NCBI RefSeq assembly: GCF_026626685.1
Contig: NZ_JAPNJX010000001.1
Location: 268,752-332,751 of the forward strand
DNA length: 64,000 bases
Origin: Nannocystis sp. SCPEA4
GTDB taxonomy: Bacteria; Myxococcota_A; Polyangia; Nannocystales; Nannocystaceae
Direction of reading: 5' to 3'
The notes beneath the pieces were generated by a model that saw nothing but the letters and a program-made list of their open reading frames with translations, made no database searches and had not been told where the DNA came from. This document shows positions 838 to 59,800 of this stretch, one piece after another. Position 1 is the first letter of the stretch. Every line of letters begins with the position of its first letter. The position numbers and the translations under genes are program-made.

Positions 838-1079
838 CGGCCCCGAGGATGGCGCCTCGGCCGGCTCGCGGTCAAGCGCCCGGCCGCCTCCGACCCGCGC
901 ACGCCGACCTCGGGCCGCGGACGACGCTCCTCGCCGGCCCCGACCGGCCAGGCCTCACGACCACGCCGTTCACATGTCTCTTGGAGCATGTCCAATCAAT
1001 CAGACAGAACGCGCCCGCTGTCGGCCCAGCGCGAGCGTTCCTCCGCCCGGCGACGAGCGGGGGCCCGCGACGCTCGCTG

Positions 1080-1312
1080 CAGGCGGGCACGGAGCGGCGG
1101 ATTTGGGACGCCGGTGGGACACCAGACGCGGTTCAGCGCGCGCAGGCGCCCCGTCCTGCGCGCGCGCGACGAACATGTCCTCAAGAGCATCTTGTCCGCA
1201 GCGACAGGCGCCGAGCACGTGAACCGGTAGGGGCCCGCCGAGCGAGCCGAGCGAGCGACCCAAATCCGCCGCTCCGTGCCCGCCGTCACCCAGTTCTTCC
1301 GGGCCCCGCGCC
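1080..1312. repeat. MITE-like repeat element, copy A (~200 bp core flanked by ~26-30 bp perfect terminal inverted repeats)
   Basis: Left TIR ggcgggcacggagcggcggatttggg (1083-1108). Right TIR cccaaatccgccgctccgtgcccgcc (1259-1284) is its exact reverse complement. The internal sequence is homologous to copies at 5687-5902 and 35391-35584. Confidence 0.8.
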
Positions 1313-5683: not shown

Positions 5684-5902
5684 GAGGCGGGCACGGAGCG
5701 GCGGATTTGGGACGCCGGTGGGACGGAGACGCGGTTCAGCGCGCGCAGGCGCCCGTCTCCCCCCACGCGAGCAACCTGTCCTCAAGACCATCCTGTCCAA
5801 AGAGACAGCGCCGAGCACGTGAACCGGTAGGGGCCCGCCGAGCGAGGGACCCAAGTCCGCCGCTCCGTGCCCGCCGTCACCCAGTTCTTCCGGGCCCCGC
5901 GC
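5684..5902. repeat. MITE-like repeat element, copy B; a partial internal copy lies immediately upstream (~5565-5612)
   Basis: Left TIR 5687-5712 and right TIR 5850-5875 (1 mismatch). The internal caacctgtcctcaagaccatcctgtccaaagagacagcgccgagcacgtgaaccggtagggg is homologous to copy A. The right end overlaps the stop codon of the TetR gene. Confidence 0.8.
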
Positions 5903-17997: not shown

Positions 17998-18876
17998 ATG
18001 AGCGCCTCCGGTCAGGGCCGCCGGGTCAGCCTCGCCGAGTCGATCGGCGCCCACCTGCTGCTGATCGTCGCCGTCGCGTTCGCCCTCTACCCTGTCCTTT
18101 GGGTCATCTCGCTCGCGTTCTCCGGCGCCGTCGAGCCGACCGCGCGGGTGATCCCGGTCCCGATCGAGCCGACCCTCGAGCACCTGCGCGGCGTCGCCTT
18201 CTCGACCCTCGAGGTGCCCGGCGGCCCCGATCGGTGGTTGTTCGGCCTGCAGCTCGCCAACTCGATCGTCATCAGCCTGGCGACCGCGCTGGTCGGCGTC
18301 ATCATCGCCGTGCCGACCGCCTACGCCCTGGCCCGCTTCGAGTTCGTCGGCAAGGACTCGGGCGTGCGCGCGCTGCTGGCCACGCAGATGTTCCCCGCGG
18401 TCGCCAGCGCGATCCCCCTCTACATCATCCTCGACGGCCTCGGCCTGCTCGGCACCCGCTCGGGCCTGGTCCTCTGCTACGCCACCACCGCCGTCCCGTT
18501 CGCCATCTTCCAGCTGCGCGGCGCCTTCGAGACCATCCCGCGCGACCTCGAGGAGGCCGCGATGGTCGACGGTGCGACCCGCTTCGAGGCCTTCCTCAAG
18601 GTCGTCCTGCCCGCCGCGCGCCCCGCCATCGCCGTCACCGCGCTGTTCGCCTTCATGAGCGCCTACAACGAGTTCGTGCTGGCCCACACCATGCTCGGGC
18701 GCGAGGAGATGTACACCGTCCCGGTGGTGCTGCAGCGCTACATCTCCGAGTTCAGCGCCGACTGGCCCAAGTTCGCCGCCGGCTCGCTGATCGTCTCGAT
18801 CCCGGTGATGATCCTCTTCTACATCGCCCAGCGCCACCTCATCGCCGGCCTCACCGCCGGCGGCGTCAAGGGCTGA
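17998..18876 (+). CDS. malG: ABC sugar permease, MalG-like
   Basis: Six TM segments. EAA motif LEEAAMVDGATRFEAFLKVVLPAARPA. The upstream 60 nt of the ORF (from 17938) overlaps a palindromic-motif cluster, so the later Met was chosen. Confidence 0.85.
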   Translation: MSASGQGRRVSLAESIGAHLLLIVAVAFALYPVLWVISLAFSGAVEPTARVIPVPIEPTLEHLRGVAFSTLEVPGGPDRWLFGLQLANSIVISLATALVGVIIAVPTAYALARFEFVGKDSGVRALLATQMFPAVASAIPLYIILDGLGLLGTRSGLVLCYATTAVPFAIFQLRGAFETIPRDLEEAAMVDGATRFEAFLKVVLPAARPAIAVTALFAFMSAYNEFVLAHTMLGREEMYTVPVVLQRYISEFSADWPKFAAGSLIVSIPVMILFYIAQRHLIAGLTAGGVKG

Positions 18877-18879
18877 CGG

Positions 18880-20960
18880 GCGAGCGGCCGGGCGCGAGTA
18901 CATCGTTCCGAACATTTGGCCTGCAAACCCGTTCAGGACGCAAGAGTGCGGGATAACTGCGTTGACAAGCGGGACAGACTCGCTCTAACTCAGGACGATC
19001 GCTCGCCTCCAAAGATCGGCTCCCTCGACAAAGAAGACCTCGCAGACACGTGCGAAGAAGGTATCTGAGAAATCTTCCCGGAAGGTGCTTGACCAATCTC
19101 GGCCCTCTGCCGCCCCCACGTATCATGCAGCCTTCGATGCTCGGAATGATCTTGCCATTCACACTCACAATGCCCGCCTCCTCTTCGCATTGGAAATCCG
19201 ATTCGGGATCGACGACATTCATTCCGCAGCCATCAATTCGCTGACAGATGGTCCGGACGACAAGAAGTGCGACTTAATTCACATTGACCGCGAACAGGGC
19301 TTTGCCGTAATCGCGCAGGCACACGAAAGAAAGAAGGGGAGAGCGGCAGGCTCGGCGAACAAAGCCAGCGACCTCAACACTGCGATTTCGTGGGCCCTCG
19401 GCGAAGAGTTAGATACCCTCCCCAAGCAGATCAAGGAAGCTGCACGTGAACTTCGTGACGCCATCAACGACCAGAGCATCACGCGACTACACGTATGGTT
19501 CGTTCATGGAGCCGCAGAGTCTTCAAATGTACGAGATGAGTTGCGCGCGGTCGAGCGGAATCTGAAACGCCTTATCAGAGATCACAACTGGGCAAAGCTC
19601 GAGACTGAAGTAACAGAAGTTGGGAGCAAGACCCTTGAGGAATGGTACTCAGCGCTGACATCTACAATCCAGGTCGGAGATAAGTTTGAGGTCAAAGTTC
19701 CCGGCGGCTATGTCATCAAAGACGCCGACAATGAATGGGAGGCCGCCGTTACGTCTGTTCCGCTATCTTGGATTCGGGAGGTTTTCCGGCGTCATCGAAG
19801 CAAGTTGTTCTCGGCAAACATTCGTGGATACTTGGGCGTTCGAGACACAGACGAGAACATCAACAATGGGATCAAGAGCACAGCAGTACGTGATCCTTCG
19901 AAGTTCTGGGCCTACAACAACGGCCTAACAGCGCTGGTCCACCGGTTCGAGTTTGATCCTGACTCCCCCTCAAAGCTACTCGTACTCCACGGTTTATCGG
20001 TAGTCAATGGCGCACAGACGACTGGCGCAATTGGCAACATTCCGGACGACATCAGCCCGGACGCCATGGTATCCATTCGCTTTGTCCGCACGACGGACAC
20101 CAGCATCGTACACAACATCATTCGGTACAACAACAGCCAGAACAGAGTTAACGCGTCAGATTTCCGCAGCAACGATAAAATCCAGCGCAGACTGCGGGAT
20201 CAGTTTAAGAGTCTGGATCCAGACATTGTATACCCCGGTGGGCGCCGCGGAGGGGAGTCTGACGCGATGGCTCGCTCCAAGAAGGATTATCTAATTCCCT
20301 CCGATTCCGCTGCACAAGCATTGGCGGCATTTCATCAAGAGCCAGGTTTGGCGTATTTACAGAAAGGACAGATCTGGGAAGATAACGAAACCTATCATAG
20401 ATTCTTCAATGACAAGACGACAGCATCGCACATTGTCTTCGTATTCTCGCTACTGCGTGCGGTCGAGAAAGCAAAATCAGAACTGCGCGAAAGAGCACAT
20501 AGAAACGAGATGACAGAGATCAATGAACGCGCGTACAATTTCTTCCTGGGCCGCGGTGCAACATATTTGCTGATAGCGGCCATCGGAAAGTGCCTGGAGA
20601 CGTTTGCGAAGAAAAGAATCCCAGAAACATTCAGAGTCTCATTTGGGAACGCGCGGTATCAAAGCGCCGTATCCTTCTGGAATCCAATCGTAGAGATTAG
20701 CCTTGCGGGGTGTGGCGTTCTCCAGCCTGCTGTCGATGCCAGACTGAAAGACAGTGCTGTGAAGGATGCATTGGGAAAGTTTCAGCAATTGATCGAGATG
20801 ACCAAACAGGCGAACATTTCGATCTACAATGAGTTCACTCGAAAGATCAAAATCGACTAGTGCGGCGGTCCCCCCGCAGATGCCTACTCCGCTCCCACGG
20901 CTGGGCTTGGCGCTCGTTTTCGCCCATGTGCAATTGGCGGATCTTCACACCAGCCGGTGA
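18880..20960. mobile_element. Low-GC (~50% vs ~72% host) island, ~2 kb, with no integrase or tRNA visible; carries a single AIPR gene
   Basis: Abrupt compositional shift visible in the raw sequence between malG and the S9 peptidase gene. Codon usage is AT-ending, unlike the flanks. Confidence 0.6.
19085..20860 (+). CDS. AIPR-family abortive-infection (phage resistance) protein
   Basis: 591 aa. Segments typical of AIPR (PF10592): RGYLGVRDTDENINNGIKSTAVRDPSKFWAYNNGLTALV, LSVVNGAQTTGAIG, IIRYNNSQNRVNASDFRSND. An N-terminal DGPDDKKCDLIHIDRE block is also present. Confidence 0.7.
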   Translation: MLDQSRPSAAPTYHAAFDARNDLAIHTHNARLLFALEIRFGIDDIHSAAINSLTDGPDDKKCDLIHIDREQGFAVIAQAHERKKGRAAGSANKASDLNTAISWALGEELDTLPKQIKEAARELRDAINDQSITRLHVWFVHGAAESSNVRDELRAVERNLKRLIRDHNWAKLETEVTEVGSKTLEEWYSALTSTIQVGDKFEVKVPGGYVIKDADNEWEAAVTSVPLSWIREVFRRHRSKLFSANIRGYLGVRDTDENINNGIKSTAVRDPSKFWAYNNGLTALVHRFEFDPDSPSKLLVLHGLSVVNGAQTTGAIGNIPDDISPDAMVSIRFVRTTDTSIVHNIIRYNNSQNRVNASDFRSNDKIQRRLRDQFKSLDPDIVYPGGRRGGESDAMARSKKDYLIPSDSAAQALAAFHQEPGLAYLQKGQIWEDNETYHRFFNDKTTASHIVFVFSLLRAVEKAKSELRERAHRNEMTEINERAYNFFLGRGATYLLIAAIGKCLETFAKKRIPETFRVSFGNARYQSAVSFWNPIVEISLAGCGVLQPAVDARLKDSAVKDALGKFQQLIEMTKQANISIYNEFTRKIKID

Positions 20961-21016
20961 ATCCAACCCGCGGTCAGCGCATTCCAAGCCTGGAACCCTC
21001 AGCCCTGGAGAATTTC

Positions 21017-23110
21017 ATGCGCCGTCCTCTGCTCCTGACCGTCGGCCTCGCCCTCGCCGGCTGTAGCGGCCCGTCCGCCGAACCCACCCCGGCCAAGCCC
21101 GCGGCCGCCAAGCCCACGCCGGCGGCCGCGCCGCCCGCCGCCGCCGCCGCGCCGGAGCTCATCCCGCGCGAGGCGCTGTTCGGCAACCCCGAGCGGGCCA
21201 ACGTGCAGATCAGCCCTGACGGCAAGTACCTCAGCTGGGTCGCGCCGGTCGACGGCGTGCTCAACGTCCACGTCGCGCCGGCGAACGAGCCCGCCAAGGC
21301 GCGCGCCGTCACCAGCGACAAGGCGCGAGGCATCGTCCAGTACTTCTGGACCTTCAAGCCCGACACCCTGCTGTACCTGCGCGACACCGGCGGCGACGAG
21401 GACTTCCACCTCCACGCCGTCGACCTCGCCAGCGGCCAGAGCCGCGACCTCTCGCCGTTCCCCAAGACCCGCGCGCAGGTCAACGGCGTCAGCCACCTGC
21501 ACCCCGAGTCCGTGCTCGTCAGGATGAACGACCGCGACCCTCAGTGGCACGACCTCTACCGCGTCGACCTCGCCACCGGCGAGCGGACCCTGCTCGCCCG
21601 CAACGACAGCAAGATCGCCGGCCACATCACCGACTCCGACTTCAAGCTGCGCCTCGCCACGCGCTCGCGCGAAGACGGCGGCATCGACGTCCTCCAGCCC
21701 GACGGCAAGAACGGCTGGAAGGAGCTCGAGCAGATCCCGTTCGACGACTCGCTGAGCACCGGCTACGGCGGCTTCACCACCGACGGCAAGACCGCCTACC
21801 TCCGTGAGTCGCGCGACCGCAACACCATCGCCCTCTACGCGGTCGACCTCGACACGCGCGAGCGGAAGCTCGTGTTCGAAGATCCGCGGGCCGACATCAG
21901 CGGCGTGCTGGCCGACCCGAAGACCGGCGTGGTGCAGGCGGTCGCCGCCAACTACTTGCGCGAGGAGTGGAAGGCGGTCGACCCCGGCATCGAAACCGAC
22001 CTCAAGAAGCTGCAGGCGCTCGGTCCCGGCGTGATCAGCGTCGGCGCGCGCACGCTCGACGACAAGACCTGGATCGTCACCTACTCGGCCGCCGAGGCGC
22101 CCGCGACCTACTACCGCTACGACCGCGGGGGCGAGCCGCAGAAGTTGTTCTCGGCCCGCCCCGCGCTCGACGGCAAGCCGCTGGTGAAGCAGTGGCCGCA
22201 GGAGATCCCGTCGCGCGACGGCCTCACGCTGGTCAGCTACCTCAGCCTCCCGCTGCAGGCCGACCCCGACCAGGACGGCAAGGCCAACACGGCCGTCCCG
22301 CTGGTGCTCTACGTCCACGGCGGCCCGTGGGGGCGCGACACCTACGGCTACGCCCCCTCGCCGCAGTGGCTGGCCAACCGCGGCTACGCGGTGCTGCAGG
22401 TCAACTATCGCGGCTCGACCGGCTTCGGCAAGGACTTCGTCAACAAGTCCAACTACGAGTGGTCGGGCAAGATGCACGACGACCTGCTCGACGCCGTCAA
22501 GTGGGCCGTCAAGCAGGGCGTCACCACCGAGGACCAGGTCGCGATCATGGGCGCCAGCTACGGCGGTTACGCCACCCTGGTCGGCCTGACATTCACGCCC
22601 GACACCTTCAAGTGCGGCGTCGACGTCGTCGGCCCGTCCAACCTCAACACCCTGTTCGCCACCTTCCCGGCCTACTGGGCCAGCTTCATGCAACAGTGGT
22701 ACGGCCGCGTCGGCGACTCGCGCACCGACGAGGGCAAGAAGCAGCTGCTCGAGCGCTCGCCGATCAGCCGCGTCGACCGCATCAAGAAGCCGCTGCTGAT
22801 CGCCCAGGGCGCCAACGACCCGCGCGTCAGCCAGGCCGAGAGCGACCAGATCGTCACCGCCATGCAGGCGAAGAAGATCCCGGTCACCTACGTGCTGTTC
22901 CCCGACGAGGGCCACGGCTTCGCCCGCCCGGAGAACAACAAGGCCTTCACCGCCGTCGCCGAGGGCTTCCTCGGCGCCTGCCTCGGCGGCCGCGTCGAGC
23001 CGATCGGCAAGGACTTCACCGGATCGAGCATCACCGTCCCCGCCGGCGCCGACGGCGTATCCGGCCTGACCGCGGCCCTGCAGTCGCACACGCAGCAGAT
23101 CAAGAAGTGA
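21017..23110 (+). CDS. S9-family serine peptidase (prolyl oligopeptidase / dipeptidyl-peptidase type) lipoprotein
   Basis: Signal MRRPLLLTVGLALAGC. Catalytic GASYGGY and C-terminal alpha/beta hydrolase domain (DEGHGF). The ORF 20957.. was trimmed to the signal-peptide Met. Confidence 0.85.
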   Translation: MRRPLLLTVGLALAGCSGPSAEPTPAKPAAAKPTPAAAPPAAAAAPELIPREALFGNPERANVQISPDGKYLSWVAPVDGVLNVHVAPANEPAKARAVTSDKARGIVQYFWTFKPDTLLYLRDTGGDEDFHLHAVDLASGQSRDLSPFPKTRAQVNGVSHLHPESVLVRMNDRDPQWHDLYRVDLATGERTLLARNDSKIAGHITDSDFKLRLATRSREDGGIDVLQPDGKNGWKELEQIPFDDSLSTGYGGFTTDGKTAYLRESRDRNTIALYAVDLDTRERKLVFEDPRADISGVLADPKTGVVQAVAANYLREEWKAVDPGIETDLKKLQALGPGVISVGARTLDDKTWIVTYSAAEAPATYYRYDRGGEPQKLFSARPALDGKPLVKQWPQEIPSRDGLTLVSYLSLPLQADPDQDGKANTAVPLVLYVHGGPWGRDTYGYAPSPQWLANRGYAVLQVNYRGSTGFGKDFVNKSNYEWSGKMHDDLLDAVKWAVKQGVTTEDQVAIMGASYGGYATLVGLTFTPDTFKCGVDVVGPSNLNTLFATFPAYWASFMQQWYGRVGDSRTDEGKKQLLERSPISRVDRIKKPLLIAQGANDPRVSQAESDQIVTAMQAKKIPVTYVLFPDEGHGFARPENNKAFTAVAEGFLGACLGGRVEPIGKDFTGSSITVPAGADGVSGLTAALQSHTQQIKK

Positions 23111-27778: not shown

Positions 27779-30328
27779 ATGATCGGATCCCCGGAGCCTG
27801 GCGTGCGCAGCGGCTCGCGCCGAACCTCGCAAGCCGGGCCGCGGGCCGGCTGCTCGTGCGAGCTCCTGCTCTCGCTGTGCGCCGCCGACTCGGTCCAGGG
27901 CGTCCTGGCCGCGCACGGCCTCGACGTCGCCCGCCTGCGCGCCGTCGTCGACGAGCTGCACGCCGAGGTCGAGACCGAGCCGGCCGACTGGCGCCTGCGG
28001 ATCACCCAGCGCGGGGGCCGCGCCGCCGATCCCGACCTCGACCTCCTGCTCGCCCTCGTCCGCTCCGCCGACTCGCACGCCTACCAGCTGCTCGAGCGGG
28101 CCGGCGCCGCCTGCGGCGCCCTGCGCAAGCTGTTGATCGACCGCCTGCGCGCGCTCGAGGCCGCCGCGCTCACCGGGACAGGTCCCTCGCGCCATGTCGC
28201 ATCGGCCATGTCCTCCGAGACAGCCATGCCGCGGCGCCCCGTCGTCCAGCGCATGTCGACCCTCGCCGCCCCCGGCGAGCGCCCGGTCCGCCGCTCGCTC
28301 GCCGACGGCCGCGCAGGCGACATGTCCCCGCGGACAGGCGCCAGCGACGCCCAGCCCCGTCCCGCCCGCGGCGGCGCCCGCACCTGGCCCGAAGGCCAGC
28401 CTGCCACGCGCTCGCCTCGACCCACCGACGTCCGCACCTGGCCGGAAGACCATCCGGCCCGCGCCCGCCTCGACGCCGCCCGCACCTGGCCCGAAGACCA
28501 GCCCGATTCGCCGCGCCTGCTCACGCGCGCGCCGACCCGCACCCAGCCGCGCCTGCCCGTCCGGCCCGAGCCGGGCCGCCCGTCGGCCCTGTCCCTCAAG
28601 CCAGGTCCCAACGCCCAGGTCGCGCCGGCCAGCGAGCCCGAGCCGCGCCCGGCCCCCGCGCCCCAGCCCGAGGCCCGCAGCCACCGCCTGAGCCCGATCG
28701 ACCCGTCGGCCCTGCCGCCGCTGCACGGCCGCGAGGGCGAGCTGGCGCGCCTCGCCGACGCCGTCCTGCGCCGCTCGCCGCGCCCGCCGCTGCTCGTCGG
28801 TCCGGCCGGCAGCGGCCGCACGCTGGTCGCCAAGCACCTCGCCGGCCTGCTGCACCAGCCGGTCTTCTACCTGTCCGCGACCCGCTACGAGGACGAGGAC
28901 GGCCTGCGCGCCGACCTCGCGGCGATCGCCAAGCAGGGCGGCGTCGCCATCCTCGACGACCTCGACCGCCTCGGCGGCGACGGTCCGCCGGCGCTGCTCG
29001 GCGCCCTCGCCAAGGCCTGGTCTTCGGGACAGCCGCCGATCGTCGCCGTCGCCTCGCCCGAGGGTCAGGCCCGCCTGTGCGCCTGGGCCCCCGGCCTGGC
29101 CGCCGCCCTCGACCTCGTCACCCTCCAACCGCTCGAGGGCGACGACCTGCGCGCCGCCGTGGCCGCCGCCGCGCCCGCGGTGCTGGCCCAGCACGGCCTG
29201 TCTCTCGGGTCATGTAGCCGCCTGGCCGAGCTCGTGCGCCTGTCCGACCGCTTCCTCGCCGGCCTGGCCCAGCCCGGCCGCAGCCTCGACCTGCTCGACC
29301 TCGCCTGCGCCCGCACCGCCCGCGAGGGCCGCGGCGCCGTCCAGCGCGACACCTGGGTCGACATCGTCTGCGAGCGCAGCGGCGTCCCGCGCGAGCGCCT
29401 CGAGGGCCAGGGCCACCAGGACATGCTCGAGCTCGAGGCCGAGCTCGCGCGCAAGGTCGTCGGCCACGAGCACGCCCTCGCCGCCATCGCCCAGCTGATC
29501 CGCAGGAACCGCGCCGGCTTCGGCTCGCAGCGCCCGATCGCCACCGTCCTCCTGCTCGGCCCCAGCGGCGTCGGCAAGACCGAGATCGCCAAGGCCCTGT
29601 GCGGGGCCCTGTTCGACCGCCCCGACGCGTTCGTCCGCCTCGACATGAGCGAGTACGCCGAGGCCCACGCGGTCGCGCGGATCGTCGGCGCCCCGCCCGG
29701 CTACGTCGGCCACGAGCAGGGCGGCGCGCTGACCGACCCACTGCTCAAGCAGCCGCACTGCGTCGTCCTCCTCGACGAGATCGAGAAGGCCCACCGCGAC
29801 GTCCACCAGCTGCTGCTGCAGGTGTTCGACGAGGGCCGCCTCACCGACGGCCGCGGCCGCACCATCGACTTCCGCCACGCCGCGATCATCATGACCTCGA
29901 ACCTCGGCGCCACCTGCCTCGACGCCACCGGCGACGCCCGCCTCGACGAGGCACGCGTGCTCGAGGCCGCCCGCGCCGCCTTCCCGGTCGAGCTGTGGAA
30001 CCGCATCGAGGCCCCGCTGGTGCTCCACCCGCTCGGCGGCGAGCAGCTGGCCCGGATCTGCGCCCGCCTGGTCCGCGCCTCCTCCGACCGCCTGCTGCGC
30101 GAGCGCGGCATCCGCTACCGCCTCACCGAGGCCGCCACCCGCCACGTCGTCTCGCTGTGCGGAAAAGACATGTCCCTTGGGGCACGTCCCTTGCGACATG
30201 TCCTTACGCGCAGCGTCGAGGCGCTCCTGGCCGACGCGATCCTGCGCGGCCAGATCCGCGCCGGCATGCAGGTCGAGGTCGACCTCGACCTCCACGGCGC
30301 GCTGTGCCTGCTGGCCTCGCGCGCCTAG
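27779..30328 (+). CDS. ClpA/ClpB-family (Hsp100) AAA+ ATPase-like protein with a degenerate first AAA module and a repetitive linker
   Basis: Clp_N-like N-terminus. Then a low-complexity (RTWPEDQP)n linker. AAA-1 has Walker A GPAGSGRT. AAA-2 has GPSGVGKTEIAKAL, VVLLDEIEKAH, sensor, and a C-terminal GARPLRH motif. Confidence 0.75.
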   Translation: MIGSPEPGVRSGSRRTSQAGPRAGCSCELLLSLCAADSVQGVLAAHGLDVARLRAVVDELHAEVETEPADWRLRITQRGGRAADPDLDLLLALVRSADSHAYQLLERAGAACGALRKLLIDRLRALEAAALTGTGPSRHVASAMSSETAMPRRPVVQRMSTLAAPGERPVRRSLADGRAGDMSPRTGASDAQPRPARGGARTWPEGQPATRSPRPTDVRTWPEDHPARARLDAARTWPEDQPDSPRLLTRAPTRTQPRLPVRPEPGRPSALSLKPGPNAQVAPASEPEPRPAPAPQPEARSHRLSPIDPSALPPLHGREGELARLADAVLRRSPRPPLLVGPAGSGRTLVAKHLAGLLHQPVFYLSATRYEDEDGLRADLAAIAKQGGVAILDDLDRLGGDGPPALLGALAKAWSSGQPPIVAVASPEGQARLCAWAPGLAAALDLVTLQPLEGDDLRAAVAAAAPAVLAQHGLSLGSCSRLAELVRLSDRFLAGLAQPGRSLDLLDLACARTAREGRGAVQRDTWVDIVCERSGVPRERLEGQGHQDMLELEAELARKVVGHEHALAAIAQLIRRNRAGFGSQRPIATVLLLGPSGVGKTEIAKALCGALFDRPDAFVRLDMSEYAEAHAVARIVGAPPGYVGHEQGGALTDPLLKQPHCVVLLDEIEKAHRDVHQLLLQVFDEGRLTDGRGRTIDFRHAAIIMTSNLGATCLDATGDARLDEARVLEAARAAFPVELWNRIEAPLVLHPLGGEQLARICARLVRASSDRLLRERGIRYRLTEAATRHVVSLCGKDMSLGARPLRHVLTRSVEALLADAILRGQIRAGMQVEVDLDLHGALCLLASRA

Positions 30329-32713: not shown

Positions 32714-34456
32714 TTGAGCGCCGACCGCATCCACGGCGACACCGCCAACCTGAAGAGCAGCCAGTCGCGCGCCCTCCAGCGCCTCGGCGAGCGCCGCGTC
32801 CCCGCCGACCGCGTCATCTCGGCCGCCCTCGCGCGCGACCTGCTCGACCTCTCGCACCAGCTCGGGCGTCAGCTCGGCCTCTTCATCGACCGCCGCGGCC
32901 AGGTCGAGCGCGTCATCCTCGGCGACGCGCACAGCCTCAGCCTGCCCGAGTTCGCCCGCGTCCGCGGCGCGCTCGGCCGCTTGCGCGGCATCCGCCTGAT
33001 CGTCACGCACCTCGTGCCCGACCCGCTCACGCGCGAGGAGCTGGCCGACCTCGCCAAGCTGCGCCTCGACCTCGTCGCCGCCGTGCACCGCGGTCCCGCC
33101 GGCATCCAGCTCGACCTCGCCAGCCTCACCCCTGCTGCGCCCGGAGCCGCCGAGGTGTTCACGCTGCGGACCTGGCCGAGAGTACCTGTCTCGACGCTCA
33201 GCCGCGACCTGTCGACGCGACCCGACGAGGAGACGCCCCCGCCGGCCGACGCGCCGGACCTGCCGATCGACTTCACCGGCTTCATCCGCGAGCTCGAGGC
33301 CAAGCTCGTCGCCGCGACCACCGACGCGCGGGCCGAGGCGCGCGGCACCAAGGCGACCGCGCTGATGATCCACGGCGGCGGCCCCGAGGTCCCGGCGCGG
33401 ATCTCCGAGCTGCGCGAGCTGTGCCGCACCGCCGGCATCCAGCTGATGGACCTCGTGACCCAGCGGCGCCCGCAACCCGACCCGCGCACCTTCTTCGGCC
33501 ACGGCAAGCTGCGCGAGGTCATCGTCCGCGCGCTCGAGCAGGACTGCGAGCTCCTGATCTGCGACCCCGACCTCACGCCCTCGCAGGCCCACGCGATCGC
33601 CGAGGAGACCGAGCTCAAGGTCATCGATCGCACCACGCTGATCCTCGACATCTTCGCCCAGCACGCTCGCAGCGCCGATGGCAAGCTGCAGGTCGAGCTG
33701 GCCCAGCTGCGCTACATGTTGCCGCGCATGGTCGGCAAGGGCACCGCGATGTCGCGGCTGGCCGGCGGGATCGGCGGGCGCGGCCCCGGCGAGACCAAGC
33801 TCGAGATCGATCGCCGCCGCGCCAAGGAGCGCATCAACGCGTTGACGCGCCGCCTCGACGAGCTGCGCCAGCGTCGCGACCAGCGCCGCGCGCTACGCCG
33901 CAGCACCAACGTCCCGGTGGTCGCGATCGTCGGCTACACCAACGCCGGCAAGTCGAGCCTGCTCAACACGGTGACCCAGAGCGAGGTCCTGGCCGAGAAC
34001 AAGCTGTTCGCCACCCTCGACCCGACCGTCCGCCGGATCCGCTTCCCCGAGGACCGCGAGGTCGTCCTGCTCGACACCGTCGGCTTCATCCGCGACCTCC
34101 CACCGGCCCTGCTGCAGGCGTTCAGCGCCACCCTCGAGGAGGTCGCCGACGCCGACCTGCTGCTGCTCGTCGTCGACGCCAGCGACCCCGATCGCGACCA
34201 GCAGCGCGCCGCCGTCGAGGCGATCCTCGGCGACCTCGGCGCCGGCAAGGTCCCGCGCCTCGTCGTGTTCAACAAGTGCGACCTGCTCGCGCCGGAGGAG
34301 CTGGCCGCTCGCCGCGAGGACGCCGGCCCCGACACCTTCTTCATCAGCGCGATCGACCGCCGCAGCACCTTCCCGCTCATGCACGCCATCGAAACTCACC
34401 TGTGGGAGCGCGGAATGATCGAGCGCGCGGCCACGTTCACGGGTGAAGAGCCCTGA
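32714..34456 (+). CDS. hflX: GTPase HflX with a ~200-aa N-terminal extension
   Basis: HflX N-domain plus G-domain G1 [22 protein letters not shown] start in the ORF track. Confidence 0.9.
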
Positions 34457-35331
34457 TGTCCGCCCCCGAGCTCGACCTCGGCCTCGCCGCCCTCCTCGGC
34501 GCCCTCCAGGGCGTGGCCGAGTTCCTGCCGATCTCCTCGTCCGGCCACCTCGCCCTGGCCCAGCGCGTCGCCGGCCTCGACGCCGGCGCCGGCGGCCACT
34601 CGTTCAACATCGTCGTCCACGCCGGCACCCTGCTGGCCGTCCTGATCCACTACCGCGGCGACCTGCTCGCGCTGGCCCGCGCCGTTTTGCGTCCAGGACA
34701 TGTCCCCGAGCGCATGCCCGATACGCCAGGCTCGGAGGGACATGTCCCCTCGAGCAGCTCGCCGACCGACGCGCGGGCGCTGCTGCTCGCGCTCGTCATC
34801 GGCACCTTGCCGCTGGCCGCCGCCCTCGCCCCGCCGGTCGAGAACCTCGTCATCGCCGCCGAGCACCACCCCAAGGCCATCGGCGCCTGCTTCCTCGTCA
34901 CCGCGGCGATGCTGGGCCTGGCCGAGTGGCTGACCCGCAAGCGCCGGCGCCCGCAGGAGGTCCCGCGGCCGCTGCAGGCGCTGCTCATCGGCCTCGCCCA
35001 GCTCGTCGCCATCCTGCCCGGCATCTCGCGCAGCGGCTCGACGATCGCCGCCGCCATGGGCCTCGGCCTCGGCCGCCTGCCGGCCGCGCGCTTCTCGTTC
35101 CTGCTGGCGATCCCCGCCATCCTCGGCGCCTCGCTCAAGGAGGCGCTCGACCTGATGAAGGAGGGCCTGCCCGCCGTCGACCCGCTCGCCTTCGTCGTCG
35201 GCTTCTTCGTCAGCTTCGTCGTCGGCGTCGCCACCCTGCGCGTGCTGTTGGTCCTGCTCGTCCGCGTCGGCGTGGTGCCCTTCGTGCCCTACCTGGTCGT
35301 CCTCGGCCTCGCCGTCCTGGCTCTCGGTTAG
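34456..35331 (+). CDS. uppP: Undecaprenyl-diphosphatase (BacA/UppP)
   Basis: [17 protein letters not shown] motifs. Colinear with E. coli UppP except for a ~12-aa longer loop encoded by two GGACATGTCCCC copies. Confidence 0.85.
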
Positions 35332-35384
35332 GCGCCTGTCTGAGCCAAGCGCGCGACCGAAGACGCGGGGCCGTGGAGAGCTGG

Positions 35385-35590
35385 GTGACGGCGGGCACGG
35401 AGCGGCGGAGCGGGTCCCTCGCTTTCGGCGGGGCCCTCCCAGGCAACGTGCTCGGCGCCCTCGGGCTTCGATGTTGATCTGTCGTTGAGGACAGGTTCGT
35501 TCGTGCCTGGCGGACGATGGCGCCTGCGCGCGGTTGCCTGCGGCCCCTCCCGCCGGCGTCCCACTCCGCCGCTCCGTGCCCGCCTGCGAA
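35385..35590. repeat. MITE-like repeat element, copy C (inverted internal orientation relative to A/B)
   Basis: TIRs ggcgggcacggagcggcggagcgg (35391-35414) and ccactccgccgctccgtgcccgcc (35561-35584). The internal sequence is the reverse complement of the copy A/B core. Confidence 0.7.
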
Positions 35591-35905
35591 GAGCGTCGCC
35601 GGCCCCGCTTGTCGCCATGCGGCGAGCGCGGCACCACCGACTGCGGTGTCGCATGCGCCATGTCCAAGAGGACATGCTCTCCGGGACAACGTGCTCGGCG
35701 CCCTCGGGCTTCGATGTTCATCTGTCGTTGAGGACAGGTTCGTTCGTGCCTGGCGGACGATGGCGCCTGCGCGCGGTTGCCTGCGGCCCCTCCCGCCGGC
35801 CCCGCTCGTCGCCTGGCGGTGAGCGCGGCACCACCGACTGCGTGTCGCACGCGCCATGTCCACGAGGACATGCTCTCCGGGACAGAGCGTGCTCCGTCGA
35901 GCATG
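35445..35905. repeat. Tandem duplication, 241-bp unit x ~1.9, overlapping copy C and extending toward the queA stop
   Basis: aacgtgctcggcgccctcgggcttcgatgtt...ccatgtccaagaggacatgctctccgggac recurs at 35445 and 35686. The second unit lacks the TIR. Confidence 0.7.
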
Positions 35906-35915
35906 GCCCCTGCGC

Positions 35916-36941
35916 TCAGAGGCGCGTGAGCAGCATGCAGTCGCCGTACGAGTAGAAGCGATAGCCGGCGGCCACCGCCTCGGCGTAGGCCGCGAGCACG
36001 CGCTCGCGCCCGCCGAGGCAGCACACCAGCATCAGCAGCGAGCTGCGCGGCAGGTGGAAGTTCGTGACGATCGCGTCGACCACCTTGAACTCGAAGCCGG
36101 GCGCGATCACCAGGTCGGTCGTGCCGGAGAACGGCGCGATCTCGCCGGCGCGGGCGACTGCCTCGAGGGCGCGCGTTGCCGTGGTGCCGACGGCCACCAC
36201 CGGCCGGCCCTCGGCCTTCGCCGCCGCGATCCGGCTCGCGGCCGCCGCGTCGAGCTCGACCCGCTCGGCGCCGACCTTGTGCTCGCGGACATCCTCGGCC
36301 TCGAGCGGCAGGAACGTGCCCGGCCCGACGTGCAGCGTCACCCGCACGACGTCGAGCTGCGCCAGCACCTCGGGCTCCCAGTGCAGTCCGGCCGTCGGCG
36401 CGGCCACCGAGCCCGGCTGCGCCGCGTAGGTCGTCTGGTAGCGCGACGCGTCCTCGTCGGTCGGCCCCGCGGGCCGGCGGATGTACGGCGGCAGCGGCAC
36501 CTCGCCGCGACTGGTGAGCGCGCCCATCCACTCGCCGGCCTCGACGCAGAACACCCGCGCCCGCGGGTCGACGGCGTCGGGCTCGACGTAGCGGGCCGCC
36601 CACTCGCCGCAGCGCACCACGTCGCCGGCCCGCAGCCGCTTGGCCCCGCGGACCCACGCGCGGAACGTCTGCCCCGGCAACAGCCCCGGCCGCGGATCGC
36701 AGACCAGCAGCTCCAGCTCGCGCCCGTTGTGCAGCACCCGCAGCCGCGCCGGCACCACCCGCGAGTCGTTGACCACGACCAGCGCGCGCGGGTCGAGGAA
36801 GCGCGGCAGCTCACGCGCATGCGCGTGGACCGGCGCCCCCGCGTCGCGCTGCACCAGCATGCGGGCATCGCCCCGCCGCGCCGCCGGCGTCTGGGCGATC
36901 TGCTCGGGCGGCAACACGTAGTCGTAGGCTTCGGGACCCAT
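35916..36941 (-). CDS. queA: S-adenosylmethionine:tRNA ribosyltransferase-isomerase
   Basis: Full-length colinearity with QueA (MGPEAYDYVLPPEQIAQTP...GTTATRALE...). The ORF was trimmed to the conserved N-terminus. Confidence 0.9.
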   Translation of the reverse strand: MGPEAYDYVLPPEQIAQTPAARRGDARMLVQRDAGAPVHAHARELPRFLDPRALVVVNDSRVVPARLRVLHNGRELELLVCDPRPGLLPGQTFRAWVRGAKRLRAGDVVRCGEWAARYVEPDAVDPRARVFCVEAGEWMGALTSRGEVPLPPYIRRPAGPTDEDASRYQTTYAAQPGSVAAPTAGLHWEPEVLAQLDVVRVTLHVGPGTFLPLEAEDVREHKVGAERVELDAAAASRIAAAKAEGRPVVAVGTTATRALEAVARAGEIAPFSGTTDLVIAPGFEFKVVDAIVTNFHLPRSSLLMLVCCLGGRERVLAAYAEAVAAGYRFYSYGDCMLLTRL

Positions 36942-38396: not shown

Positions 38397-40112
38397 GTGG
38401 CAGTCTTGTCCCCCGTGGCGACCCCCCTGTCGGCCCTCTCGCTGATCGCCTGGCTCGCGCTCGCCGGCGCGGCACCTGGCGGTTCGAGCATGTCCATTGG
38501 CGCAGGTCCTGGCGGCCAGGTGCGTTCGGACATGTCCGAACGGCCAGGCCCGCTCCTGGCCCTCGCGCCGGCCCGCGGCGGCAAGGCCAAGGCCCCCGCC
38601 CCCGAGCCCGCTCCGGCCCCCGCCCCGCCGGCCTACGGCCCCGAGCAGGCCCGCGCCGACATCGAGCTCGTGCTCACCGGCCGCGGCCAGGACTACCTGC
38701 AGGCCCGCGCGCGGCTCGAGCAGCACCCGACCGTCGCCGCGCCCCTGGTCACCGCGCGCATGACCGCCACGCCCGCCCCCACCGCCGTCGAGCAGCGCCG
38801 CCTGCTCGCGCTGCTCGGCGGCATCGCCCGCCCCGAGGACGTCCCGCTGTTCGCCGACGCCATGCGCCGCGACGTCGCCGCCGCGGCCAAGCAGTCGCAG
38901 GAGCAGGGCATCGAGCTGCCGGCCGCCGAACCATGGCGCCAGATCCTGCGCGCCCAGGGCCCTGCGGCCGCGCCGGCGCTCACCGGGCTCGTGGGGGAGA
39001 AGTCGTTCAGCGAGGAGCTGCGCGGCCTCCTGCTCGCCGACCTCGTCGCCGTCACGCCGGCCGACAAGCTGCCCGAGCTCGTCGCGCTGGTCGGCCTCGG
39101 CGCGCCGAGCCTGCGCGCCGCGCTGCGCCAAGCGATCGCTCGCCGCGCGCACGCGTCCGCCGACGAGCGGGCCCAGCTCGTGCGGGTCGTCGACGCCGCG
39201 ATCGAGGCCCGCGAACCGGCGCGCCTGCCCGGCCTCGTGCTGCTGCGCGCCGCGATCGGCGGCAGCGACGACGGCGTGTTCACCCAGCGCGCGGCCGCCC
39301 TCGCCGAGGACGCGGCCGCCGAGTTCGCCGCCCGCGTCGCCGCGCTCCGCGTGCTCGTCGCGCGGCGCAGCGACCCCGCGGCGCAGACGGTGCTGGCGCG
39401 CCTCGCCGAGCAGCACCTGCCCGCCGACAAGCGCGTCGAGCTGCGCAGCGAGATCCTCGGCAGCCTCGCCCTCGCCGGGCTCGAGCCCGGCCCTGCCGCC
39501 GCCGTCGTCGACCGCCTGCAGCTCACCGGCGCCGACGCGCCGCGGGTCGCCGTCGCGGCCTTCTCCGTCGCCACCTTGCCGGCCGACGGCGCCTGGCTCG
39601 ACGCTAGCCAGCGCCACGCCTGGCCCGAGGTCCGCGCCGCCGCGCTCGCCCGCGTCGACGGCCCGTGCTCGCCAGGCATCCTCCGCCGGCTGCGCGACGG
39701 CACCAGCACCTCGGGCAACACCTTCGAGACCGACGCCACCGTCGCGCGCGAGGTCATCGCCGCGCTCGGCCGCTGTGGGGGTCCCGACGCCTTCGCCGCG
39801 CTGCAGGCCGTCGTGGTCGACGCCAATCAGAACGTCGACCGACGGGCCGAGGCCGCGCGCCAGCTCGTCGATCGCCACGGCAGCGCCGGCGCCGACGTCG
39901 TCGCCGCCGTATTGCGCAGCACCGACGACCTCGCGGTCGCGCTCCGCCTCGTGCGCGCCCTGCAGCGCTGGCCCGACGACAAGGCGCCCCCCTCCGACGG
40001 CGTGCGCCAGGCCCTGTGCGCCGCGAGCAAGCGCCAGGAGCTGGCCACGATCGCCCAGCGGGCCGTCCGCGGCCTGTTCCCCGACCTCGACGACCCCTGC
40101 GCGGGCAACTGA
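38397..40112 (+). CDS. HEAT/ARM-like repeat protein, probably exported
   Basis: Alpha-helical Ala/Leu-rich repeats (…LVALVGLGAPSLRAALRQAIARRA…). The N-terminal ~45 codons contain the palindrome ttcggacatgtccgaa, so the true start may be the Met at ~38530. Confidence 0.5.
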   Translation: MAVLSPVATPLSALSLIAWLALAGAAPGGSSMSIGAGPGGQVRSDMSERPGPLLALAPARGGKAKAPAPEPAPAPAPPAYGPEQARADIELVLTGRGQDYLQARARLEQHPTVAAPLVTARMTATPAPTAVEQRRLLALLGGIARPEDVPLFADAMRRDVAAAAKQSQEQGIELPAAEPWRQILRAQGPAAAPALTGLVGEKSFSEELRGLLLADLVAVTPADKLPELVALVGLGAPSLRAALRQAIARRAHASADERAQLVRVVDAAIEAREPARLPGLVLLRAAIGGSDDGVFTQRAAALAEDAAAEFAARVAALRVLVARRSDPAAQTVLARLAEQHLPADKRVELRSEILGSLALAGLEPGPAAAVVDRLQLTGADAPRVAVAAFSVATLPADGAWLDASQRHAWPEVRAAALARVDGPCSPGILRRLRDGTSTSGNTFETDATVAREVIAALGRCGGPDAFAALQAVVVDANQNVDRRAEAARQLVDRHGSAGADVVAAVLRSTDDLAVALRLVRALQRWPDDKAPPSDGVRQALCAASKRQELATIAQRAVRGLFPDLDDPCAGN

Positions 40113-44619: not shown

Positions 44620-45080
44620 GTTGACCGTGCGAGCGCGCGGCGGCTCCGCGGACGGCGGGGTCGCGGCGCGTGATCTCGGTGCCTCTTGCGGCGGCGACGA
44701 CTCCCAGTCTGCAGAGCCCCGCTGCGCGCGCCCTCGCGTCGTCTCCTGCGGCGGCGACTCCCGCTGCGCGCGCCCGCGTGTCGTCTCCGGCTGCGACGAC
44801 TCCCAGTCCCCGGAGCCCGGCTGCGCGCGCCCGCGTGTCGTCTCCTGCGGCGGCCACGGCTCCCAGTCTCCGGGGTCGGGCTGCGGCGACGGCTCCCAGT
44901 CCTCGGGGCCCGGCTGCGCGCGACCGCGTGTCGTCTCCTGCGACGGCTCCCAGTCCGCAGGGCCCGGCTGCGCGCGCCCTCGCTTCGTCTCCTGCGGCGG
45001 CGGCCCCGAGGCCGCCGGGCCCGGTTGTGTGCGCGCTCGCGGCTCGGACTCGCGGGCGGATCTGGCCTGGTCTTCGGGCC
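44620..45080. repeat. Degenerate tandem repeat array, ~45-90-bp units x ~6-7
   Basis: Units of the form cctgcggcggcgactcccagtc...ggctgcgcgcgcccgcgtgtcgtct. On the minus strand they translate to (PQETTRGRAQ...DWEPS)n, either an N-terminal extension of UDG or an intergenic array. Confidence 0.7.
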
Positions 45081-56635: not shown

Positions 56636-56665
56636 GTTGACACGGCAAACGTGGATTGGCTATTG
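56636..56665 (+). promoter_or_regulatory. Candidate sigma70-like promoter for the giant repeat protein gene
   Basis: TTGACA (56636-56641) - 18 nt - TATTGC (56660-56665). Preceded by four ggatcc(t)t direct repeats. Speculative. Confidence 0.25.
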
Positions 56666-56874
56666 CCTCCCGGCCCTTGGTCGCCTCTGAGCCCACTGCG
56701 CGCCTCGGAGGCGCCGACGCGAGTCCCCAGCTCGACGCGCCCGGCGACGTCCCGGTCGTCGGCGCCGTCATCCACACGCGCGTCGCCACAGTGTCCGCCT
56801 GCCTGATCGGCGCCTGTCTGATCGGACTTGTCCCTCGGGACAGCCACGCCGCGCGCCCCGTCCCGCAGCTCGGC

Positions 56875-59800
56875 ATGGTCGCCTCGACCGGCGCGCCGAC
56901 CTGGCCGGCCCTGCACGCCGCGCCCGGGCTGCGCCCTGCCGACCTGGTCGCCGGCCTCGGCGCGCCGCTGCTGCTCGCCCCGCCGCGCACCACCCCGCGG
57001 CGCCTGACCGGCGGCCAGGCCGAGCCGCCCGCCGGCGAGCCGCCTGCGAGCGAGCCGCCCGCGAGCGAGACGGCCGCGCCGGTCGAGCCTGTCCCTGAGG
57101 ACATGCCCGCTCAGCCAGGGCCTTCGGGACCTGGCCCGACGGGCAGCCCGCTGACGCGGCCGACCCCGAACCTCGCGCCGCCGCCGAGCGGCGACGATCT
57201 CCAGGCCGGTGACGAGGAGGTCGCGCCGGCGCCGGAGCCGACCAACGACAACGCCCCGCCGGTGACGGTGCTGGTGCCCGAGCCGGAGAAGCCCGACCCG
57301 ACCGACGAGGTCCCGCGCTTCCTCAAGGGCAAGAGCGTCCCGCCGTTCTGGATCGACCGCACCTACACGACGCACCGCACGCGCGCGCTGACGCTGCCGC
57401 CGCTGTTCTTCGACCGCCGCGGCACCGCGACCCATCCGGAGAAGCTGTTCCACTTCAACCTGTCCTTAACGACAGGTTGGTACAGCCAGCGCACGGCCAA
57501 GCGGCGGTGGTTGTCGCCGGCGATCCTGTTCTTCGGCTCGTTCAGCGAGCGCACCAGCGGCTGGGGCGCGGTCGCGCTGCTGATGGGCTACAAGCGGGTC
57601 GGCGAGCAGTTCAGCTTCGGCCAGTTCCCGTTCGTGTGGCGGTGGGGCAACAAGTCGGTCAAGAACCTGATCGTCGTCCCCTTCCACTACCACCAGAAGA
57701 CGCCCGACAGCATGCGCGGCTTCTCGGCGGTGCTGTTCTGGTACGGCCACAAGAACACCACCGACAAGGACCCGCTCAACGACCTGCGCTACTTCGTCGG
57801 CTTCCCGCTGTTCTACCGCGTGACCCGCGGCCCGAGCACCGTCAACGTCGGCGTCCCGCTCTACGTCGGCGGGCAGAACAAGGCCCGCGGGGTCAAGTGG
57901 CACACGGTGCTGCCGTTCGTGCACTGGCAGTCGAGCGAGTACGGCAACCGCAAGGACCTGTGGACGCTGCTGTACGTGCAGCGCAGCGACAAGGCCCGCA
58001 GCCTGCGCGCGTGGGCCGTCCCGCCGCTCCTCACGTTCTCGCACCAGACCCCGACGCGCAAGCTGTTCTCGGCCACGCCGCTGGTGTGGCGCGCCGAGAA
58101 CCGCGACCGCGGCAGCGTCGCCTGGTCGGCGTTCCCGTGGGTCAGCTACCGCGACCCGGAGCAGCGCAACCGCGTGCTGTTCCCGCTGTTCTGGCAGTTC
58201 GGCGACCTGAAGGCCGGCGTCACCAGCAGCGTGTTCGTCCCGCTGCTGTACGCGCGCAAGAGCCCGCAGGACACGCGGGTCTACACCCTGCTCGGAGGCG
58301 GTCGCGCCGGCAAGGACGGCCGCTGGGGCTTCGGCATCACCCCGCTGCTGACGTTCGTGCGCAACGAGCCGGGCGGCAAGAGCTTCCAGGTCGTCACGCC
58401 GCTGTTCGGCCACTCGCACGACCCGAGCGCCTACGACGGCAAGGGCTCGCGCACGCTGTCGGCCGGCGTGCTCGGCTTCTACCGCCGCCGCGGCGAGCGC
58501 TGGGACGCCGGCCTCGCCCCGCTCGCGTTCGTCGGCCGCGACGGCACCCGCTCGTACCAGACCATCACCCCGCTGTTCTGGCACCGCCGCGACACCGACC
58601 CGGCCAAGCCGAGCGACCTGTGGGTGCTCGGCCCGATCTACGCCAAGAAGGTCAAGTCCGGCGGGCACGGCGGCCTCGCACCGCTGGTGTTCGCCGGCCG
58701 CGACGACAAGTTCCGCTACGGCATCGTCCCGCCCTTGCTCTTCGGACATGTCCACGACGTCGAGGCCCAGCGCGCGCTGACGGTGTCGCCGCTGTTCGCC
58801 CGCAGCAAGGGCCCCGACCACCGCACGATCGGCGTGCTCAACCTGTTCTGGGACGTGAAGCGCGCCGGCGACGAGCGCCACACCGCGCTGTTCCCCCTCT
58901 TCTACCGGCGCCAGAAGGACGGCAAGGCGCTCACCCTCACCCCGCTGGGCGGCGCCTACCGCACGCCGGAGCAGCGCACCTGGTCGGCCGCGGCGCTCCT
59001 GTACGGCTTCCGCGGCTACAAGGATCCGGTCCGCCGCGGCTTCGGCCTGATCCCGCTGGTGTTCTACGATCGGCGCAAGGTCGAGGGCGGCGTCGCCAGC
59101 AACCTCGTCGTCGCGCCGCTGTTCGCCCGCCACCGCGCGCCCACCGAGGACCTCGACATGTGGTCGCCGCTGGTCTGGCGCACCGCCACCCGCGGCGAGA
59201 AGCCGCGCAAGAACCTCGCGGTCGTCCCGTTCTACTTCCGCCAGCGCCAGCCCGAGGGCATCGACGTCGACGCCGGCCTGCTGCTGCCGTTCTTCTACAG
59301 CCGCGACAAGGTCCGGCGCACGCACACGCTCATCGCCGGCCCGGCGTTCCACCGCCTCACCCGCACCTCGCTCAACGCCGGCGTGGTCCCGGTCTACTGG
59401 TGGATGGACTCGGCGGAGAAGCGGCGCCTGATCTCGCTGCCGCTCATCTTCCACCAGGCCGACAAGGGGAAGAACGAGCACACCACCATCGCCGTGCCGT
59501 TCTGGTTCGACCGTCAGCGGGCCAACGGTCGCCGCTCGTGGGTCGCGTTCCCGTTCGTCGTCGGCGTCAAGGGTCAGTTCAACTTCACGCGCTTCAGCCT
59601 GACCCCGCCGATCTTCTTCGACTTCTTCCGCCTGCACAAGAACTACCGCTTCACCGGCGTGGTCCCGTTCGCGTTCCGCTACCAGAAGTGCGGCTTCCGC
59701 GAGGAGGACGACGATCGTTGCCGCTACACGCTGTGGGGCTCGTGGCCGTTCTTCCTCTACGGCAAGGACGGCAAGGGCCGCACCAGCCACGGCGCGTTGA

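Follow-up and report, generated by a model that had tools for sequence, protein, structure and literature searches.

The highly iterated palindrome HIP1 of cyanobacteria, GCGATCGC, is 15- to 300-fold over-represented (PMC5861425; PMC4390886). It occurs inside as well as between open reading frames (ORFs) and is conserved at orthologous sites, which points to maintenance rather than chance, and its function is still unexplained after decades (PMC5861425). Rickettsia palindromic elements (RPEs) are in-frame palindromic repeats in housekeeping genes, where they lengthen proteins at structurally permissive places (PMC10969869), and the uptake sequences of Pasteurellaceae (uptake signal sequences, USS) and Neisseria (DNA uptake sequences, DUS) have many copies in ORFs, preferentially at poorly conserved positions, and shift peptide composition (PMC2817400). 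Here we describe a 64-kb stretch of DNA from Nannocystis sp. SCPEA4 (hereafter the window), in which a palindromic motif with a 14-nt period recurs about once per kilobase and forms an in-frame array in uppP, the gene for undecaprenyl-diphosphatase (UppP). This lattice resembles HIP1, clusters of repetitive extragenic palindromes and bacterial interspersed mosaic elements (REP/BIME), and DNA uptake sequences more than it does a transposon, and it behaves most like HIP1. Our preferred explanation, held with moderate confidence, is that a loop of UppP is encoded by five units of a very abundant Nannocystis lattice motif that is maintained at the nucleotide level and expands in place.

The uppP gene (34456..35331, + strand) encodes a protein of 291 residues, recognized from its ORF, Pfam, homologues and an AlphaFold2 model. 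Its assignment to the BacA family is secure: residues 11-285 match positions 1-256 of the 257 in the Pfam BacA profile PF02673 with an E value of 2e-64 (218 bits, cutoff 33.4), and in a phmmer alignment the protein is colinear with the E. coli BacA structures 5OON and 6CB2 (E~3e-28). Both catalytic motifs, whose roles on re-entrant helices have been described (PMC5852022), are present, with BacA1 (E..LPxSSxGH) at residues 21-31 and the BacA2 sequence PGISRSG at 188-194, within 187-196; their columns are invariant or nearly so in an alignment of 32 UppP orthologues. The UppP of N. radixulma is 99% identical to that of the window. The model has the 12 helices of a multi-helix membrane fold, a mean predicted local distance difference test score (pLDDT) of 85.4 and a predicted template modelling score of 0.84. 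Values of pLDDT below 50 are limited to the N-terminus and to loop residues 84-100, and residues 79-102 are modelled as coil.

The loop stands out at the DNA level as well. The source genome has a G+C content of 71.5%, and the segment encoding residues 79-103 (34690..34764, + strand) combines low pLDDT and coil structure with AT-ending codons, which make up 8 of its 25 codons as against 3 of 266 elsewhere in uppP (Fisher p=1.3e-7). Codon periodicity is lost across 34665-34785, a region that spans the loop. The first-pass annotation of this DNA had listed CCA, GGA, CAT, GAT and ACG as rare codons here. The first four are indeed minor codons of the genome, as is CGT, each accounting for 5-12% of its own codon family; ACG, which makes up 34% of Thr codons, is not rare.

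Its statement that the extra sequence occupies a loop is borne out by mapping onto BacA, where the insertion point aligns with the loop between helices H3 and H4. The loop is also longer, as had been claimed, but the proposed figure of about 12 residues is too low: the E. coli BacA chain shows about 16 gap positions here in the phmmer alignment, and between fixed anchors the region exceeds those of Enhygromyxa and Plesiocystis by 20-22 residues. UppP is thus like E. coli BacA in family, colinear sequence and catalytic motifs, and differs in its H3-H4 loop, which has about 16 additional residues and is encoded by repeat DNA. In the BacA crystal structure, loop L2-3 and helix H4' lie at the periplasmic end and the active site faces the periplasm (PMC5852022); from this topology, the H3-H4 loop would be cytoplasmic and far from the active site.

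The starting observation was that two copies of the 12-mer GGACATGTCCCC lie in frame within this loop. Exactly two are present in the window, at 34696-34707 and 34738-34749 (expected 0.01; none of 100 shuffles reached two), and both are in frame 0 of uppP and read G-H-V-P. Their start-to-start distance is 42 nt, equal to three units or 14 codons. The gap of 25 nt originally given between them is incorrect, because 29 nt separate the 12-mer from the second copy as it had been written, gggacatgtcccc from 34737. Nor is a 12-nt palindrome the relevant unit. Five units with a 14-nt period, each consisting of a 10-nt GGACATGTCC-like core and a 4-nt spacer, form an in-frame array, and the two copies correspond to its units 1 and 4.

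All five units lie on the + strand. Unit 1 (34696..34709) is the exact palindrome GGACATGTCC followed by ccga; it reads G-H-V-P-E and is orthologous in the other cultured Nannocystis. Unit 2 (34710..34723), GCGCATGCCC plus gata, has its CATG 14 nt after that of unit 1, is of the frame +1 type and reads R-M-P-D; across species it is conserved as xxxCATGCCC, and it is GGACGTGCCC in strain RBIL2. Unit 3 (34724..34737), CGCCAGGCTC plus ggag, keeps the 14-nt register and is of the frame +2 type, reading T-P-G-S-E; it has CAGG at its centre, which is kept in the species compared. In unit 4 (34738..34751) the exact palindrome GGACATGTCC returns, now followed by cctc and read as G-H-V-P-S, in frame 0 again 42 nt past unit 1. 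Unit 5 (34752..34765), GAGCAGCTCG plus ccga, is degenerate yet in register, and appears as GGACAGC or GGACAGG in other species. In the unit-by-unit comparison of species the row for the N. pusilla locus L009 was mis-matched, and its loop was taken from other alignments.

Since 14 mod 3 is 2, the reading frame moves from 0 to +1 to +2 along consecutive units, so that one core is translated in each of the three frames, as GHV(P), (x)DMP (also DMS) and TPG. The recurring orthologue peptides of the form GHVP...DMP...TPG...GH(A/V)P are therefore a translation of the DNA period and not a protein motif.

The same motif is dispersed over the window. Exact copies of GGACATGTCC number 9, against 0.05 expected; 32 matches are found with up to one mismatch (1.7 expected) and 90 with up to two (27 expected). 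Distances between pairs of the latter peak at 14 nt (13 times), 28 nt (7) and 42 nt (4). The half-sites are spaced just as sharply. TGTCC-Nk-GGACA is found at k=4, as 17 exact dyads where 0.02 are expected, and at k=18, and GGACA-Nk-TGTCC at k=0 (9 times), 14 and 28, other spacings being nearly empty for both; TGTCC-Nk-TGTCC peaks at k=9 and k=23. These spacings imply that half-sites GGACA|TGTCC alternate on a strict 14-nt lattice, of which the palindrome (GGACATGTCC with its 4-nt spacer) and the abutting TGTCC-N4-GGACA dyads are two views. In the literature we found GGACATGTCC only as a p53 half-site and no account of Nannocystis repeats; Rfam gave no match in the window at gathering thresholds and none at E<=1 in 34400-36000. 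The strict 14-nt lattice, the override of codon choice in an ATPase motif described below and the generation of hypervariable loops appear to be new.

The first-pass annotation had described the palindrome as littering intergenic DNA and the loop as made of the same sequence. The identity of the two and the dispersal of the motif are confirmed, but about 60% of motif matches (43 of 71) lie inside called genes, even though the density outside genes is about 2.7-fold higher. Half of the intergenic matches lie no more than 60 nt downstream of a stop codon, compared with 14% of random intergenic positions, and just 11% are 60 nt or less from a start.

Core and spacer columns were compared in five orthologous arrays, each with 3-6 species and vetted rows only; in this small sample, 41 of 170 core columns (24%) are variable as against 32 of 68 spacer columns (47%; Fisher p=0.001). 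The CA(T/G)G in the middle of the core hardly varies, even though the frame shifts from each unit to the next. A clear example is the five-unit in-frame array at 38486..38555 (+ strand), which encodes a linker after the hydrophobic N-terminus of the product of gene 38397-40112: in six species its cores are fixed, and the residues encoded by its spacers vary freely among I, L, Q, S and P.

On the aligned sequences, such a pattern of fixed cores and free spacers cannot be attributed to protein selection, and we infer that the motif is recognized as nucleic acid and not as protein. This bears on the proposal that the loop peptide, for example through GHVP repeats rich in His and Pro, has a function of its own and that the DNA motif is a side effect. 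The recurrence of GHVP or GHAP in many orthologues would fit such a function. However, spacer-encoded residues change freely and third-position core nucleotides do not, and the loop is predicted to be disordered and varies in length about 2.5-fold among cultured species and 4-fold relative to outgroups. We rejected a protein-level explanation, which we regard as very improbable, since the same 10-mer core recurs, with equal frequency, in all three frames and in non-coding DNA.

The lattice is also found over a conserved protein motif. Three units at 30166..30203 (+ strand) in a Clp-like AAA+ gene (27779-30328), aGACATGTCC-cttg-GGGCACGTCC-cttg-CGACATGTCC, encode KDMSLGARPLRHVL of the ClpB D2-small domain, within the part of the protein that matches the Pfam family ClpB_D2-small. 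The sequence GARPL is the conserved sensor-2 segment of Clp/Hsp100 proteins. Over these units 7 of 15 codons are AT-ending in all six species, and the G+C content at third codon positions (GC3) is 0.53 compared with 0.95 for the segment; the rare codons CTT, GCA, CGT, TTG, CGA and CAT over GARPL, which are rare at its degenerate positions, are kept in six species. Substitutions are confined to spacers or outer core positions. Within the genus, the array does not change in length among six Nannocystis species, which suggests that the lattice was written onto existing Clp codons and that the motif can arise or persist in place by point substitution.

The lattice has a narrow taxonomic range. Six cultured Nannocystis species have 7-12 matches per 13 kb, and the motif is also enriched in a locus from a Nannocystis metagenome-assembled genome (L013, 4 matches) and in a short second one (L012, 2 matches); enrichment is at least 20-fold in all of these. 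Loci from other Nannocystaceae and from Enhygromyxa and Plesiocystis have 0-2 matches, that is, none or a chance level, and these lineages without the motif are the ones with a short UppP loop. The loop and its motif are thus lineage-specific. Between the anchors the loop region measures 34-36 residues in the outgroups, 56 in the window strain, 64 in N. exedens, 96 in N. punicea, 107 in N. bainbridge, 125 in RBIL2 and 138 in N. pusilla. The 14-nt register of the loop units is found in N. exedens, N. punicea, N. bainbridge and RBIL2 too; it is kept in the metagenomic relatives L068 and L069, and the loop of L070 contains one perfect dyad. Just upstream of uppP, locus L013 has five tandem copies of a repeat with a period of about 39 nt (5758-5915), each containing the perfect dyad cggcTGTCC-cgga-GGACAgctccg.

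Orthologues of units 1-4 are present in the cultured species that were compared, which, together with the lattice units in the loops of more distant relatives, implies that the array is old and that later changes were local. Such changes are seen as a 51-nt tandem duplication (DPAGHVPADS...) in the loops of RBIL2 and N. pusilla and as a 42-nt insertion or deletion between these two. The N. radixulma assembly (L001), which shares 98% DNA identity with the window over 13 kb, contains this loop too, including both GGACATGTCCCC copies, with only two substitutions, both outside the motif copies. This independent loop and the related arrays in at least ten independent genomes and metagenomes refute a sequencing or assembly artefact, for which the window offers no support and which we consider negligibly probable.

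The claim that the reading frame is left undisturbed holds for the window strain, but not for two N. pusilla assemblies. In strain Na p29 (L009, 6225-6600) uppP is broken by changes of -1 and -2 nt with an in-frame TAA, and in GCA_049060185.1 (L067, 1130-1720) by a 1-nt deletion just past the loop, leaving an annotated truncated protein of 247 residues; in a third N. pusilla assembly (P0006) the gene is intact. As regards a slip-strand contingency locus, in which a near-perfect tandem repeat with a unit not divisible by 3 turns the frame on and off, the unit here is 14 nt but the arrays are imperfect, and the breaks are single- or double-base changes of homopolymer type and not changes of units. 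They may reflect pseudogenization or long-read or assembly error.

The first-pass annotation proposed that the dispersed element can insert into, or expand within, coding sequence. Expansion is supported by the steps of 42 and 51 nt. Insertion in the manner of a transposon is not, and the related explanation that a mobile element, such as a miniature inverted-repeat transposable element (MITE), an RPE or a REP doublet forming a hairpin (REPIN), transposed in frame into uppP and likewise gave rise to the other coding copies seems to us unlikely. The loop is an insertion relative to the outgroups, its segment is a long imperfect palindrome, RPEs offer a precedent for in-frame insertion (PMC10969869), and the same genome carries a dispersed rod-like palindromic repeat of 216 nt with a dyad at its apex and a copy number different from that in N. 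radixulma. Against this, the array has no fixed length, terminal inverted repeats, target duplication or clean empty site, and its length is continuous across species. The orthology of units 1-4 and the lattice units in more distant lineages also speak against transposition, as does the overlay on the Clp sensor-2 segment without length change among six species. Reading of the core in three frames leaves no conserved element-encoded peptide, and no transposase or REP-associated tyrosine transposase (RAYT) was found among the window ORFs scanned.

Our preferred explanation instead invokes expansion in place. The lattice motif, found in Nannocystis and a few close relatives, lies inside and between genes, piles up just after stops and would be maintained as nucleotide sequence whatever the reading frame. 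The ancestor shared by the Nannocystis lineages sampled would already have had the array in uppP, which would since have gained and lost units locally as repeated units were duplicated or deleted, presumably through slippage or unequal recombination. The H3-H4 loop would tolerate the extra residues because it is disordered (pLDDT <50) and away from the active site, and only length changes in multiples of 3 nt, such as 42 nt and also 51 nt, would survive selection.

In the window strain, units 1 and 4 are predicted to pair in a long hairpin (34696..34747, + strand) that is extended by CCGAGC/GCTCGG and has 11-nt arms with 100% complementarity. As RNA, 34686-34760 folds with -32.8 kcal/mol (z=-3.2), and none of 200 shuffles is as stable; other arrays have z values from -2.7 to -9.3, among them the array at 38486-38555 with -47.1 kcal/mol (z=-3.7). 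The consensus fold of five species consists of a hairpin of units 1 and 2 and an outer stem with one compensated pair.

These structures could be taken to mean that the loop DNA is a locus-specific cis-element of the hflX-uppP operon, for example an operator or a structure in the mRNA at which translation pauses once helix H3 has been made, with the likeness to intergenic copies reflecting a shared regulator. Besides the predicted structure and the compensated pair, the conservation of cores between species and the clustering of rare codons directly past a transmembrane helix agree with this idea. However, at about one site per kilobase the motif is too abundant for a locus-specific signal, the long hairpin of units 1 and 4 is specific to the window strain, and the number and order of units vary widely between species, which together make a cis-element improbable.

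A strict scan for 10-bp stems with 4-nt loops gave 21 matches where 6-9 are expected, only five of them being motif-related. Fully compensated 10-bp stems are found at 15660 and 42875, and the fully compensated stems that depart from the consensus include GCGCATGTCC-gtcc-GGACATGCGC and GGCCATGACC-gcaa-GGTCATGGCC. We rate the chances as about even that the motif acts as a short hairpin of RNA or single-stranded DNA, similar to a REP or a terminator. That it serves as a double-stranded site, bound by a dimeric protein able to tile at 14-bp intervals, is possible but has a clearly lower probability in our estimate. A dimeric DNA-binding protein on a 5-4-5 dyad is nonetheless as simple a model as a hairpin, and 42 bp correspond to about four helical turns, or three 14-bp sites per four turns.

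Several points weigh against the explanation that we favour, or against parts of it. A module of several units may have entered the loop in a single ancient insertion, and the conservation of cores could stem from ongoing gene conversion or biased repair. With regard to hairpins, pairing of the outer five positions beyond the 5-bp dyad is marginal (94 against 84.0 +/- 5.9 permuted, P=0.055), and many units are of the CAGG type and so form direct, not inverted, repeats; for these two reasons the hairpin is not established. The dyad spacers displayed no preference for GNRA or UNCG when 17 sites were inspected by eye. No candidate binding protein, methyltransferase or transposase was found by Pfam among the 13 further window ORFs scanned, whose families are AIPR, Memo, SBP-permease, LamB, HU-like, Dfp, Clp-like ATPase and amylase. 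In total, about 140 kb of Nannocystis DNA was covered, and genome-wide figures are extrapolations from it.

The features above allow a closer comparison with the described systems. Like HIP1, the Nannocystis motif is strongly over-represented (about 180-fold or more), occurs in coding and intergenic DNA and has cores conserved across species. It differs in sequence and phylum, in its strict 14-nt lattice, which comprises tandem arrays and also a dyad form, in its enrichment after stops and in yielding in-frame length variation. With REP/BIME clusters it shares short, hairpin-capable units that are arrayed in high copy number and concentrated at the 3' ends of genes. Its copies are mostly intragenic, however, in contrast to the extragenic REPs, and its unit is only 14 nt, compared with the imperfect palindrome of 20-40 nt of a REP. 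The flanks read c(a/c)...(t/g)g and lack a GTAG or CGTC tag, and no RAYT (Y1 transposase) is found among the 13 window ORFs scanned; with the mostly intragenic location, this led us to reject identity with REPs.

RPEs and in-frame MITEs resemble the lattice in that palindromic repeat DNA is in frame inside a housekeeping gene at a permissive site. An RPE, however, is a discrete element of about 100-150 bp with a single coding frame that specifies one conserved peptide, whereas the 14-nt unit of Nannocystis cycles through three frames and is ancient at this site. Identity with MITEs or RPEs was rejected because there is no discrete element, terminal repeats, target-site duplication, empty sites or single coding frame. 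As to USS and DUS, the likeness lies in a lineage-specific motif of about 10 nt that is present about once per kilobase, much of it in ORFs, and affects the proteome. These sequences differ in that they are asymmetric, have no lattice of fixed period and tend to use preferred codons, whereas the Nannocystis motif forces rare ones. Inverted pairs of USS and DUS occur behind genes, and the position of the Nannocystis motif after stops resembles both these pairs and REPs.

Further copies of the lattice are spread over the window. Downstream of uppP lie two intergenic copies identified by motif and dyad scans, CGCCATGTCC aaga GGACATGCTC at 35656..35679 and another at 35852..35875, about 31-50 nt past the queA stop. 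An array of about five units, EPVPEDMPAQPGPSGP (57085..57150, + strand), is in the low-complexity N-terminal region encoded by gene 56656-60723. Other in-frame examples are an array in the Clp linker (28176-28336), a copy at the amylase C-terminus (8457) and a copy inside the Memo domain (40994). Gene 56656-60723 also contains a hairpin with a 10-bp stem, CAACCTGTCC-ttaa-CGACAGGTTG (57456-57479), which uses a TTA codon, yet the frequency of TTA is 0.0 in 17 reference genes of the window. Two neighbouring paralogous genes, 60923-62665 and 63142-63807, both on the - strand, share identical stretches, including the one-mismatch motif copy GGACATGTCG at 61025 and 63244, and have similar GC-rich hairpins downstream (60883 and 63101).

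The dispersed repeat of about 216 nt lies at 35380-35595 (+), with a partial tandem copy at 35676-35800, at 5685-5884 (-) and 1071-1293 (-), and at 6927-7151 of the N. radixulma locus L001. It folds as a single long rod-like hairpin (-139.9 kcal/mol, z=-5.3), whose terminal arms are 25 nt long and whose apex carries the lattice-type dyad TGTCG-ttga-GGACA. Downstream of uppP, N. radixulma has one tandem copy fewer than the window strain. A search of loci from the other species did not find the repeat, which has no Rfam match and looks like a MITE or REPIN.

Other repeats and unusual regions were noted as well. In the Clp-like linker, 28375-28506 is a tandem repeat of 48/54 nt that encodes three copies of RTWPE(G/D)(Q/H)P, a low-complexity linker built from repeats, and larger tandem repeats occur at 44689-45041 (93/54 nt) and 5889-6036 (72/33 nt), in regions with no clear codon periodicity. 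A stretch of about 2.3 kb (18855-21165) lacks the usual GC3 periodicity; its ORF 19085-20860 matches Pfam AIPR (abortive infection phage resistance) with E=1.7e-36, and the stretch may be foreign or a defence island.

For the biology of Nannocystis, the observations at uppP would mean that protein loops can be made and reshaped in frame by a short, hyper-abundant DNA motif and not by a classical transposon, a 14-nt repeat period combined with the 3-nt codon period giving a 14-residue peptide repeat. The arrays would account for linkers of low complexity, islands of rare codons, apparent frameshifts and errors of annotation in Nannocystis genomes. A wider proposal, which we put forward tentatively and as the less likely case, is that a previously undescribed lattice of GGACA|TGTCC spans the whole genome at about one site per kilobase and is under selection or drive that overrides codon usage even in a conserved ATPase motif, seeding hypervariable disordered linkers in many proteins, an essential cell-wall enzyme included. 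Were this true, the lineage would possess an abundant sequence-specific system for recognizing nucleic acid that is peculiar to it, for which a protein tiling DNA every 14 bp, a hairpin-binding factor, or a bias in repair or uptake are candidates. Nannocystis would then offer a second system, far from cyanobacterial HIP1, for the study of hyper-abundant palindromes, one in which the strict lattice and the arrays constrain the possible mechanisms of recognition.

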